DNA of 49,124 bases, taken from the sequence record PZ715802.1; one strand, given 5' to 3'. Below the pieces are notes generated by a model. That model saw only the letters and a list, made by a program, of their open reading frames with translations. It made no database searches and was not told where the DNA came from. The position numbers and the translations under genes are program-made. This document shows positions 341 through 49,124 of this stretch, piece after piece (the stretch's first letter is position 1; each line of letters starts with the position of its first letter). This DNA is from a phage.

Positions 341-519
341 CGCTTGATAATAAATTAGAAACGCAAAAGACGATCAACTATTTACTCGCTCTTGCTGATG
401 CACTTGAAAAAGGCGAGGCAGCATTAAATGATGTTAGTATTGAGTCAAGAAATCACGGATGGACTCAGATCGAAGAAACATTAACCGTTCAATATTTTAA
501 GGTGAATAAAGATGGCTAA
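337..519 (+). CDS. hypothetical protein (60 aa)
   Basis: internal ATG of track ORF 292-519; ATGA overlap with stop of upstream gene; GGGGG RBS 8 nt upstream. Confidence 0.4.
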   Translation: MTLDNKLETQKTINYLLALADALEKGEAALNDVSIESRNHGWTQIEETLTVQYFKVNKDG

Positions 520-1087
520 AATTATCATCCTCAATGCGCCTCCTGGTGCTGGCAAAGACACTATCGGCAAGATGATTTCTTTCTATTCACCTGGTGAGCA
601 ATGCCGAATTATTAGCTTTAAAGAACCAATGTTTGATATTGCATTGGCTATCCTTGGCAAAGAGAACTATCAGCGCTTCATGCTGGCTTATGATGACAGA
701 GAGCAGAAAGAAAGGCCGCAAACATTCCTGATGGGTATGTCACCGCGTGAGTTCATGATCTGGATTAGCGAGGATGTAATCAAACCTAAATTCGGCAAGG
801 ATTATTTCGGCGTAAGGTTTAACCAGAAAGTAAAAGAGTGTGATGCTCCTGTTGTTTGCACTGATGGTGGTTTTCCAGATGAAATTATCGCTCTAATCAA
901 TGCTGGTAATGAGGTGAAGCTATGTCGCTTGCATCGCGACGGGTTCACGTTTGCAGGTGATAGCCGCAACTACATTCGAATCAATCCATATTACCAGAAA
1001 AACGGATATAGTGAGCACGATTACTTATTAACCAATGAAAAGCCGATGATTACAGTTAGCGAAATCATTCGCGATCACCTTAAATAG
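512..1087 (+). CDS. P-loop nucleotide kinase (dNMP kinase / polynucleotide kinase-like)
   Basis: N-terminal Walker A LNAPPGAGKDT resembling the start of T4-type dNMP kinases; stop codon is the TAG of the downstream box element. Confidence 0.55.
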   Translation: MAKIIILNAPPGAGKDTIGKMISFYSPGEQCRIISFKEPMFDIALAILGKENYQRFMLAYDDREQKERPQTFLMGMSPREFMIWISEDVIKPKFGKDYFGVRFNQKVKECDAPVVCTDGGFPDEIIALINAGNEVKLCRLHRDGFTFAGDSRNYIRINPYYQKNGYSEHDYLLTNEKPMITVSEIIRDHLK

Positions 1088-36228: not shown

Positions 36229-37344
36229 ATGAGTGCAGCAAAAATTACTGACGAACAACTTATAGCAGAAAGGGCGGCAGGTTTAAAACTGCGTGAGATT
36301 GCGGAAAAATACGGAATGAGCTTGCGCCAGGTTGAGCACCGTCACAGCAAATTGGCTAAGCGTGGCGAAATCTCAACTATCGGATCACCTGGATTTGCTG
36401 TAATTGGTGAATCACAGCTTAAACGTGCAAATGGTGAGGTTGTAATGACCTGGACTAAAACGCACAAAGACAAAGCGCAATTAGATGCAATAATGCAAGC
36501 GGCTATGGCTGCATTTTCGGAAGAATTGCCACGAGTAGAACCGCAACCGGAAAAGATTGTTGACTATTCGAAAACTCTTGCGCTATATCCGATCTTTGAT
36601 ATTCACATTGGCGCAATGGCGCACAAGCATGAAAGCGGTGAGAATTACGACACGGCGACGGCAGAAAAGATCATGAATGAATTCTTTGATTATGCCGTCG
36701 ATAAAGCACCGAATAGCGAAAAGGCTGTATTGCTGATTGGTGGTGATATGATTCACAGTGACGGTCTGGAGGCTGTAACACCTGCAAGCGGTCACGTTTT
36801 GGATCAGGATTCGCGATATGCGAAACTTGTTTATGTTGCCATTCGAGCCACGCGCAGAGCAGTAAGCCGAATGCTGGAAAAACATAAAGAGGTTGAATTG
36901 CAGATCATTGAAGGTAATCACGACCAATCAGGAATGATCTGGCTACGTGCTGCAATGGCGGCGGCGTATGAGAATGAGCCACGCGTAAAGGTTGATGTTT
37001 CTCCGCGCGTCGTGCATCACACTCAATATGGTAAAACTTTCCTAGCTTATCATCATGGTCACACTGTACGCAAGCCAGAAACGCTTTTAATGATGTGTGC
37101 AGCGGATTGGCGGGAAGATTTCGGAAACTCCAATTCAATGTATGCGCATGTAGGGCATTGGCATCACCAGACTGTTACAGAAACGAGCCTTGGCATTGTT
37201 GAGGTGCATAACACTATGGCAGCAAAAGACGCTTACGCCGCGCGTGGTGGCTGGCGTTCACGTCGCAGGGCGGCGGTAATTATTTATGATAAGGAATATG
37301 GCGAAATAGGGCGGTTTATGTTTTACCCCGAAATGATTGCTTAA
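36229..37344 (+). CDS. metallophosphoesterase (calcineurin-like) with N-terminal HTH
   Basis: ORF track; AGAGGA RBS; N-terminal LKLREIAEKYGMSLRQV; phosphoesterase motifs DIHIG, GGDMIHSD, GNHD, HHGH. Confidence 0.6.
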   Translation: MSAAKITDEQLIAERAAGLKLREIAEKYGMSLRQVEHRHSKLAKRGEISTIGSPGFAVIGESQLKRANGEVVMTWTKTHKDKAQLDAIMQAAMAAFSEELPRVEPQPEKIVDYSKTLALYPIFDIHIGAMAHKHESGENYDTATAEKIMNEFFDYAVDKAPNSEKAVLLIGGDMIHSDGLEAVTPASGHVLDQDSRYAKLVYVAIRATRRAVSRMLEKHKEVELQIIEGNHDQSGMIWLRAAMAAAYENEPRVKVDVSPRVVHHTQYGKTFLAYHHGHTVRKPETLLMMCAADWREDFGNSNSMYAHVGHWHHQTVTETSLGIVEVHNTMAAKDAYAARGGWRSRRRAAVIIYDKEYGEIGRFMFYPEMIA

Positions 37345-47489: not shown

Positions 47490-47563
47490 GGTTATAAAAT
47501 GAGCAGTTGGCACAATGAGCACGTAATGCAATTCTACCGCCACAGAATAAAGAAAATGATCAA

Positions 47564-47606
47564 TAGCACGAATTGCTAAAACAGAATCCTGGGGTTGCGG
47601 TATAGT
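47564..47606 (+). promoter_or_regulatory. composite box element: TAGCAcgaatTGCTA, 22 nt, TATAGT
   Basis: palindrome 47564-47578; spacer hairpin ggggtt/aacccc. Confidence 0.6.
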
Positions 47607-48034: not shown

Positions 48035-48142
48035 ATGTCTAAAGAGTCTATCAAGCAGTTTCTGAAATACGGTTCTATGATTGTGCTCGCTACCGTTGTG
48101 CTGGCTGGCATCGCGTATAGCATTATTGAGTTTGCGGGGTAA
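48035..48142 (+). CDS. small membrane peptide (35 aa), not in ORF track
   Basis: ATG with AAAGGAGAAG RBS; hydrophobic MIVLATVVLAGIAYSII. Confidence 0.3.
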   Translation: MSKESIKQFLKYGSMIVLATVVLAGIAYSIIEFAG

Positions 48143-48145
48143 TTG

Positions 48146-48709
48146 ATGTTTACGATCAACTTGTGGGGAAGGGATTATGTTAATCCCTATGTTGCGACAA
48201 AACAGCGTTTCGTTATTTTCGACCTAGACGGCACATTGTCAAATGGTGAGCACCGCTTGCACCTGTTGCCAACGGTTGATTTGCATCTTACTGAAAGCTG
48301 GAGTGAGTTTAATCGCGCCGCAAAGGATGATTCACCATTCAGCAATAACATTTCCGTGTGCAACGCCATGTTTGACGCCGGATACCTGGTTATCATCCTA
48401 ACAGGACGTAGTGATGAAGTTGAAGCAGAAACGCGAGCCTGGTTAGCTGAAAACGGCGTTTCTTTCGATTGGCTAATTATGCGCCGCGCGGAGGACAACC
48501 GGAAAGATACAGTAATCAAAGAGGAAGTTTTACGGACTATCGGACTAGATCGCATTGTCGCATGTTGGGATGACTCACCAAACGTTATTGCACACCTGCG
48601 CGGCCTGGGCTTGACTGTTTACCAGGTAATTGACTACGGCGAGCAGTTACACGATCACTTAAAATCTCACGGCGTGGAGGAATTGAGCGATGACAGCAAA
48701 GATAATTGA
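48146..48709 (+). CDS. HAD-superfamily phosphatase
   Basis: track ORF 48143-48709 begins with TTG; ATG at 48146; DxDGT motif in FVIFDLDGTL. Confidence 0.55.
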   Translation: MFTINLWGRDYVNPYVATKQRFVIFDLDGTLSNGEHRLHLLPTVDLHLTESWSEFNRAAKDDSPFSNNISVCNAMFDAGYLVIILTGRSDEVEAETRAWLAENGVSFDWLIMRRAEDNRKDTVIKEEVLRTIGLDRIVACWDDSPNVIAHLRGLGLTVYQVIDYGEQLHDHLKSHGVEELSDDSKDN

Positions 48710-48878
48710 AGATCGGCATGGTGATAACGTGCTTATTTACATCGAAGGGAAATCGGTGTGGATTGACTGCAAATACGAGGATGACACACATTTGCAGTTT
48801 CGCGGAATCTTTGACAAGAAAGGCGCGTTAGAGTTAGCAGAACACATCAAGCGGCTTGCGGAAGAATTACCGGAATAG
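48690..48878 (+). CDS. hypothetical protein
   Basis: ORF track; overlaps end of upstream gene. Confidence 0.4.
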   Translation: MTAKIIEDRHGDNVLIYIEGKSVWIDCKYEDDTHLQFRGIFDKKGALELAEHIKRLAEELPE

Positions 48879-49074
48879 AGTATTTATTATGTTGACTTTT
48901 ATCTTGATCGCTATCGTTTTAATTCTGTATGTTTGCGGCGCTTTCCTGATGCGAGCGCTACTAAAAGAGGCTGACGCTGATGACAAGGATAGTTGGAAGC
49001 CGATTGTTTTGTGGCCTGGCTATATCATCGTGCCAATTTACGAGCTAATCCGCGATGGTGAGTTTAAATGGTAA
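48856..49074 (+). CDS. small membrane protein (start uncertain, 48856 or 48890)
   Basis: ORF track; hydrophobic MLTFILIAIVLILYVCGAFLM. Confidence 0.4.
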   Translation: MRKNYRNRVFIMLTFILIAIVLILYVCGAFLMRALLKEADADDKDSWKPIVLWPGYIIVPIYELIRDGEFKW

Positions 49075-49117
49075 ATAGCACTTTTTGCTAAAACTTGCTA
49101 AGGCACATTTGATAAAG
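49075..49117 (+). promoter_or_regulatory. composite box element: TAGCActtttTGCTA, 22 nt, TAAAGT; no downstream gene inside the window
   Basis: palindrome 49075-49089; spacer hairpin aggcaca/tgtgcct; would drive the gene at 29 if the ends are joined. Confidence 0.55.
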
Positions 49118-49124
49118 TGTGCCT

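Follow-up and report, generated by a model that had tools for sequence, protein, structure and literature searches.

A Pnkp-type 3'-phosphatase and a gp1-type nucleotide kinase encoded as a conserved gene pair in a Tlsvirus phage: a possible nucleotide-salvage module

Two genes of the phage sequence record PZ715802.1 (49,124 nucleotides, the whole stretch henceforth referred to as the window) were analysed: a HAD phosphatase gene near its right end and a P-loop kinase gene near its left end. A sequence-only reading had described the two products as resembling the halves of a polynucleotide kinase-phosphatase (PNKP), or else as acting on the pool of deoxynucleoside monophosphates (dNMPs). Both open reading frames (ORFs) proved real and belong to known families, already annotated in phages TLS and U136B; in the TLS re-annotation, Gp09 is listed as polynucleotide kinase and Gp14 as dNMP kinase (PMC11447400). 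What is added here is the strength of the linkage between the two genes (synteny, overlap and fusion), a recurrent phrog_704 partner gene, and a paralogue linked to ribonucleotide reductase (RNR). The two genes are:

48146–48709, + strand: stand-alone HAD (DxDxT) phosphatase of the Pnkp 3'-phosphatase family, 187 amino acids, assigned by PF25109, phrog_415, structure and residues
512–1087, + strand: compact P-loop kinase of the T4 gp1/dNMP-kinase family, 191 amino acids, with Walker A motif PPGAGKDT at residues 10–17

The phosphatase ORF encodes 187 amino acids from an ATG, or 188 from a TTG one codon upstream (48143), and carries the motif DLDGT (D27-L-D29-G-T31). It scored 70.1 bits with the Pfam model PF25109 (HAD_PNKP), well above the cutoff of 27.6 (E 2.8e-19, profile positions 3–138 of 143), and matched phrog_415 at 1.4e-68, while NCBIfam gave nothing useful for this protein or for the kinase. 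The only significant sequence relatives in the PDB were Pnkp1, the best match (4XRP, Pnkp1-Rnl-Hen1 complex), and T4 Pnkp (5UJ0/1LTQ); a 38-sequence phosphatase profile returned entries of these two proteins with E-values of 2.9e-15, 5e-9 and 3e-8. Foldseek searches with the AlphaFold2 model (predicted local distance difference test score, pLDDT, of 81; predicted template modelling score of 0.79) gave the same proteins as top matches, namely 5UJ0 (E 2e-9, template modelling score, TM, of 0.79 on the target), 4XRU/4XRP and 1LTQ.

In HMMER alignments, D27/D29/T31 of the window phosphatase correspond to D165/D167/T169 of T4 Pnkp, R38 to R176, T87-G88-R89 to S211-G212-R213, D122 to D254, K126 to K258, and D143/D144 to D277/D278. 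Earlier mutagenesis is reported to have shown R176, R213, D254 and D277 of T4 Pnkp to be essential. All of the mapped catalytic residues are invariant across 38 homologues, and catalytic roles have been described for D165, D167, S211, K258 and D278 of the T4 enzyme (PMC3592404). On profile, modelled fold and active-site residues, the window protein is a true homologue of the C-terminal 3'-phosphatase domain of T4 Pnkp (pseT), to which it is about 23–30% identical, and 3'-phosphatase activity is predicted for it. Unlike T4 Pnkp, it stands alone without an N-terminal Pnk-type kinase, and no RNA-ligase partner was found for it. Directly behind motif I it carries a 12-residue insert (HRLHLLPT.DLHLTESW) that is missing from full-length Pnkp. 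This is the site at which HAD enzymes have the cap elements that select their substrates, and the insert may affect the specificity of the phosphatase. Because the protein has no kinase domain, its GenBank label “polynucleotide kinase” is a misnomer; in practical terms, this label misleads in many GenBank records of such phosphatase-only proteins.

Some T1-like homologues of the phosphatase (P0133, P0141, P0142, P0176, P0201, P0235 and P0237; also P0170 and P0227) have extended C-termini in which Cys/His-rich motifs occur, such as ...EHWFSVVDGKCLRCG, and some carry a further domain of ~60 residues. The window phosphatase has neither.

No Pfam or NCBIfam model reached threshold for the kinase. 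It was matched by phrog_139 (“deoxynucleoside monophosphate kinase”) at 1.3e-48, the same profile that matches T4 gp1 at 1.8e-65. The AlphaFold2 model (pLDDT 93.4) had its highest Foldseek TM-score, 0.70, to 1DEK (T4 gp1), the remaining matches being adenylate kinases and phosphomevalonate kinase; the GKDT P-loop is also common to the two proteins. T4 Pnkp appeared in neither structural match list of the kinase, and nothing homologous to the Pnk-type 5'-OH kinase domain of T4 Pnkp (residues 1–150) was found in the protein. Just after strand 2, T4 Pnkp has a general-base Asp (D35) and an Arg (R38) that serve to activate the 5'-OH; in the kinase, the corresponding stretch (S35-F36-K37-x-P39-M40), judged by eye only, shows no invariant acidic residue.

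A MAFFT alignment of the kinase with gp1 is colinear through GKDT, R63/R68, R79/R132-133, D118...E124/D175...E181 and the lid arginines, and G14, K15, D16, R79 and E124 are invariant in the kinase alignment. The window kinase is nonetheless 50 residues shorter than gp1, lacking an insert of roughly 36 residues, and is only 13–15% identical to it in structural alignments and 22% in the MAFFT alignment. Searches of the PDB with phmmer and with a narrow 40-sequence kinase profile gave P-loop-level matches only; because direct sequence matches are confined to the P-loop, the link to gp1 rests on the PHROG profile and structure. On these two lines, the kinase is gp1-type and not PNKP-type, and dNMP kinase activity is predicted. 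The family comprises 3,726 clusters at 50% identity. At the start of one member, P0087 (Citrobacter phage HCF1, 219 amino acids), part of the central conserved segment appears to be duplicated, and the normal P-loop N-terminus is missing; the gene may be rearranged or mis-called.

The suggested resemblance to the two halves of PNKP is thus borne out for the phosphatase (profile, fold and residues), which profile searches and structure prediction place in the Pnkp family, and is not borne out for the kinase, which the same methods place with gp1 (phrog_139, 1DEK). Mammalian PNKP and Capnocytophaga Pnkp1 (4XRP) likewise pair a HAD 3'-phosphatase with a P-loop kinase, but their kinases are Pnk-type hydroxyl kinases, whereas the window kinase is NMP-kinase-like and a separate polypeptide.

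The first 3 kb of the window are 93% identical to U136B (Escherichia phage; Drexlerviridae, Tempevirinae, Tlsvirus) and 88–95% identical to many other Tlsvirus phages, and by this comparison the window belongs to a Tlsvirus, a T1-like phage of the Drexlerviridae. When positions 48101–49124 were joined to 1–1100, the product aligned colinearly with U136B (95.9% identity), with an ungapped block running across the join, and there is no terminal repeat. Judged from the alignment, the junction truly marks a point of circular permutation of a Tlsvirus genome, and the two genes do lie on either side of it, as had been proposed; in U136B and PCST1 they are contiguous. Both lie on the + strand, ahead of the terminase genes and within a series of small early ORFs that all point the same way. 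The distance of about 1.5 kb given for them earlier is correct from start to start (1,490 bp) and too large for the stop-to-start gap across the junction, which measures 926 bp and holds four small ORFs:

48690–49074, + strand: two small co-directional ORFs of 62 and about 61 amino acids (ORF list; hypothetical proteins U136B_013 and U136B_014)
29–519, + strand: two small co-directional ORFs of 103 and about 60 amino acids (ORF list; U136B_015 and U136B_016 in U136B)

Around both genes, scans for promoters and terminators found no more candidates than in shuffled sequence, and operon boundaries therefore could not be defined.

Linkage of the two genes was assessed in two samples, one of 80 viral contigs obtained with the kinase profile and one of 80 contigs, all T1-like, obtained with the phosphatase profile. 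In every one of the 80 T1-like loci the kinase lies downstream of the phosphatase on the same strand, and this order is kept even though the module shifts between the early region and the lysis region. The spacer varies, with gaps from -58 to 2,072 bp: the genes overlap in 35/80 loci, are 50–108 bp apart in 11/80 and 640–2,072 bp apart in 34/80. In the kinase-profile sample, a phosphatase gene was found at most 2 kb upstream on the same strand in 16/80 contigs, often overlapping the kinase start, and no phosphatase was present within 8 kb in 62/80 loci. Overlapping phosphatase and kinase genes also occur in unrelated podophages. Four podophage contigs of 39–45 kb (L018–L021, of which L020 is Erwinia podophage Era103) carry phrog_704, phosphatase, kinase and ATP-dependent DNA ligase genes in that order, with overlaps.

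The two proteins are also found fused. Two protein clusters among the relatives of the kinase, P0259 (403 amino acids) and P0266 (461 amino acids), match HAD_PNKP/phrog_415 in their N-terminal part and phrog_139 in their C-terminal part; four contigs, stemming from three samples, carry such fusions. P0259 is present on three contigs of up to 60 kb, from a phage with different gene content (RdgC, NinH, Prim-Pol) and with a phrog_704 gene downstream of the fusion; the contig of P0266 is only 1.9 kb long and its context uninformative. In a neighbour-joining tree, the kinases linked to a phosphatase group essentially into a single clade, with a small second one next to it. The phosphatase-kinase pairing is not due to chance. 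Because other phages keep the two genes adjacent or fused, the products probably work together on DNA breakdown products.

A candidate third component is encoded elsewhere in the window, where it is unlinked to the pair:

36229–37344, + strand: 371-amino-acid phrog_704 protein (2.7e-149; “DNA repair exonuclease”, and “putative phosphoesterase” in U136B)

A phrog_704 gene lies immediately upstream of the phosphatase-kinase pair in L016–L021 and in 27/80 T1-like loci; in L005 it comes right after the fusion gene. The window protein gave no Pfam match above threshold and no Metallophos match, and its homologue in L018 gave only a sub-threshold Metallophos match. As the sequence-only reading had remarked, no ligase is evident: a hidden Markov model of phage ATP-dependent DNA ligases found nothing in the window at E<=10 (no RNA-ligase profile was run). 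At this sensitivity, no ligase-like ORF that could seal healed ends, as Rnl1 does in T4, was found there. No ligase is annotated in U136B, and the word is missing from the TLS paper (PMC11447400). KxDG ligase motifs occur in the window only in structural proteins and primase and were dismissed as chance. An ATP-dependent DNA ligase gene adjoins the pair only in some podophage relatives.

The reading favoured here, with moderate confidence, is that the pair is a nucleotide-salvage module acting on DNA-derived phosphoesters. At the level of nucleotides or short oligonucleotides, such a conserved module would feed phage DNA synthesis. The gp1-type (d)NMP kinase would convert 5'-dNMPs from degraded host DNA to dNDPs, and the phosphatase, through Pnkp-type aspartyl-phosphate chemistry, would strip 3'-phosphates from deoxynucleotides or oligonucleotide ends. 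Once freed of 3'-phosphates, the products might be degraded further and join the 5'-dNMP pool, with the phrog_704 phosphoesterase/exonuclease perhaps carrying out the digestion. Family membership, intact active sites, synteny and fusions are shown by the analysis, whereas the substrates, the role in salvage and any contribution of the phrog_704 protein are inferred.

Several findings point to the nucleotide level. The relatives and fold neighbours of the kinase all phosphorylate a phosphate group, and kinases with and without a linked phosphatase have the same catalytic motifs. The kinase loci without a phosphatase sit among genes of replication and nucleotide metabolism, and neighbours of this kind include 5'-3' exonuclease, ThyX, RNR, PhoH and NT5C. 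The phosphatase of T4 Pnkp turns over 3'-dTMP at 24 per second (PMC3592404). In RB49-like phages, which possess full Pnkp and RnlA, the closest stand-alone phosphatase is encoded right behind the genes for ribonucleotide reductase. In phage kvi, for example, full Pnkp is encoded beside RnlA, and the gene of the separate stand-alone phosphatase, kvi_96, follows nrdA-nrdB, overlaps nrdB at its end and lies upstream of denA. Over 151 residues without gaps, kvi_96 is 42% identical to the window phosphatase and has the insert in common with it; it differs in following nrdA-nrdB and not lying beside a gp1-like kinase, and in having ED in motif IV where the window protein has DD. T4-like Krischvirus phages have such a second, stand-alone HAD_PNKP protein apart from their full-length Pnkp; in kvi (L169) its gene is at 2486–2962 and bears the misleading label “polynucleotide 5'-kinase and 3'-phosphatase”.

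T7 gp1.7 and T5 Dnk are comparable in the proposed role, that of a dNMP kinase belonging to a lytic phage that degrades host DNA. The T7 gene lies in an early DNA-metabolism block near the DNA ligase gene, although gp1.7 has no P-loop and is not homologous to the window kinase. Host DNA is recycled by phages T1 and TLS through genes yet to be identified (PMC11447400); the recurrently adjacent phosphoesterase, 3'-phosphatase and nucleotide kinase are concrete candidates for this T1-type reuse of host-DNA nucleotides.

Other observations weigh against nucleotide salvage. With hhalign, the kinase and T4 gp1 aligned at a probability of 39.6% across 36 columns, all of them at the P-loop, and in the rough neighbour-joining tree of kinases gp1 falls outside the others on a long branch. 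Literature searches found no assayed member of the compact 190-amino-acid kinase clade, and to our knowledge none has been assayed; on the pair itself they returned genome-annotation papers only and no biochemical study. It is hard to see what metabolism would gain from fusing a dNMP kinase to a 3'-phosphatase, whereas kinase-phosphatase fusions are the hallmark of end-healing enzymes. Full dephosphorylation of 3'-dNMPs would yield nucleosides, which are poorly salvaged by E. coli. Finally, the four podophage operons end in DNA ligase, and in five further loci (L023, L025, L038, L055 and L069) the kinase and ligase genes are adjacent.

These ligase associations suit a different explanation, which is considered rather unlikely, that DNA ends are healed by the pair as a non-orthologous polynucleotide kinase-phosphatase split between two proteins. 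The phosphatase would remove 3'-phosphates at nicks or breaks and the gp1-like kinase would phosphorylate the 5'-OH. Host LigA would then seal the break in T1-like phages, and the neighbouring phage ligase would do so in podophages, probably to repair damage done by host nucleases. The fusions place the phosphatase N-terminal and the kinase C-terminal, which is also the domain order of mammalian PNKP. The same explanation draws on the tight phosphoesterase-phosphatase-kinase-ligase operons, on the Cys/His-rich C-terminal tails of some T1-like phosphatases, which could bind nucleic acid, and on a faint match of the phrog_704 protein to the NCBIfam model PdeM, a ligase-associated DNA-damage endonuclease (18 bits, far below cutoff). 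It is further consistent with the phosphatase having every catalytic residue of T4 Pnkp (PMC3592404). Of the two possibilities raised by the sequence-only reading, action on the dNMP pool came out better supported than the PNKP-like one.

In its fullest form, which is judged unlikely, the DNA-end explanation has a polynucleotide kinase-phosphatase evolve a second time and independently, with an NMP-kinase scaffold recruited to phosphorylate 5'-OH DNA ends. With the phrog_704 phosphoesterase and a DNA ligase, supplied by the phage itself in podophages and by the host (LigA) in T1-like phages, this enzyme would make up an end-repair pathway against host nucleases that leave 3'-phosphate/5'-hydroxyl breaks. 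If the kinase does act on DNA ends, the module would be an unrecognised analogue of polynucleotide kinase-phosphatase.

It is improbable that the two genes have unrelated functions and are close only through a shared location in the early gene block. Four small ORFs do separate them in Tlsvirus, no promoter or terminator signal above chance marks an operon, and a gene order shared within a single phage family may be inherited and need not reflect selection. Such an origin does not account for fusions on four contigs from three samples, for overlap of start and stop codons in many loci, for adjacency recurring in phage groups with different genome architectures, or for an order retained in all 80 T1-like loci despite moves between the early and lysis regions.

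Very improbable is an RNA-repair healing module that restores tRNAs cut by anticodon nucleases such as PrrC, perhaps triggered by the Stp-like peptide of the phage: the closest solved relatives of the phosphatase, T4 Pnkp and Pnkp1, are RNA-repair enzymes and a Stp homologue is encoded nearby, but Rnl and RtcB families are absent from the 25 most frequent Pfam families among 135 neighbour proteins and none is annotated in U136B, the pair occurs throughout the Drexlerviridae while non-T4-like Stp proteins are few among the matches listed, RB49-like phages keep a separate full Pnkp and RnlA for tRNA repair, and host RtcB joins 3'-P/5'-OH ends directly, which would make healing counterproductive.

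The Stp homologue is a 26-amino-acid ORF at 47499–47579 (+ strand), 566 bp upstream of the phosphatase gene. It is equal in length to T4 Stp, with 13 of the first 18 residues identical, and its tblastn matches fall exactly on annotated stp genes of T4-like phages; the U136B label is “putative Stp”. T4 Stp inhibits the EcoprrI restriction enzyme and by doing so triggers the PrrC anticodon nuclease. The presence of the homologue as a sign of tRNA repair by the pair was rejected, no RNA ligase having been found with the pair and the pair being far more widespread than Stp.

Among the other neighbours of the kinase, an ORF of 184–188 amino acids that recurs upstream of it in marine loci was considered as a nucleotidase and ruled out, since it gave weak RuvC-like matches or nothing. 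Glycosyltransferases (Glycos_transf_1, Glyco_transf_4 and Glyco_trans_1_4) are among the commonest kinase neighbours on environmental contigs (L022–L086), at 6–8 of 135 proteins.
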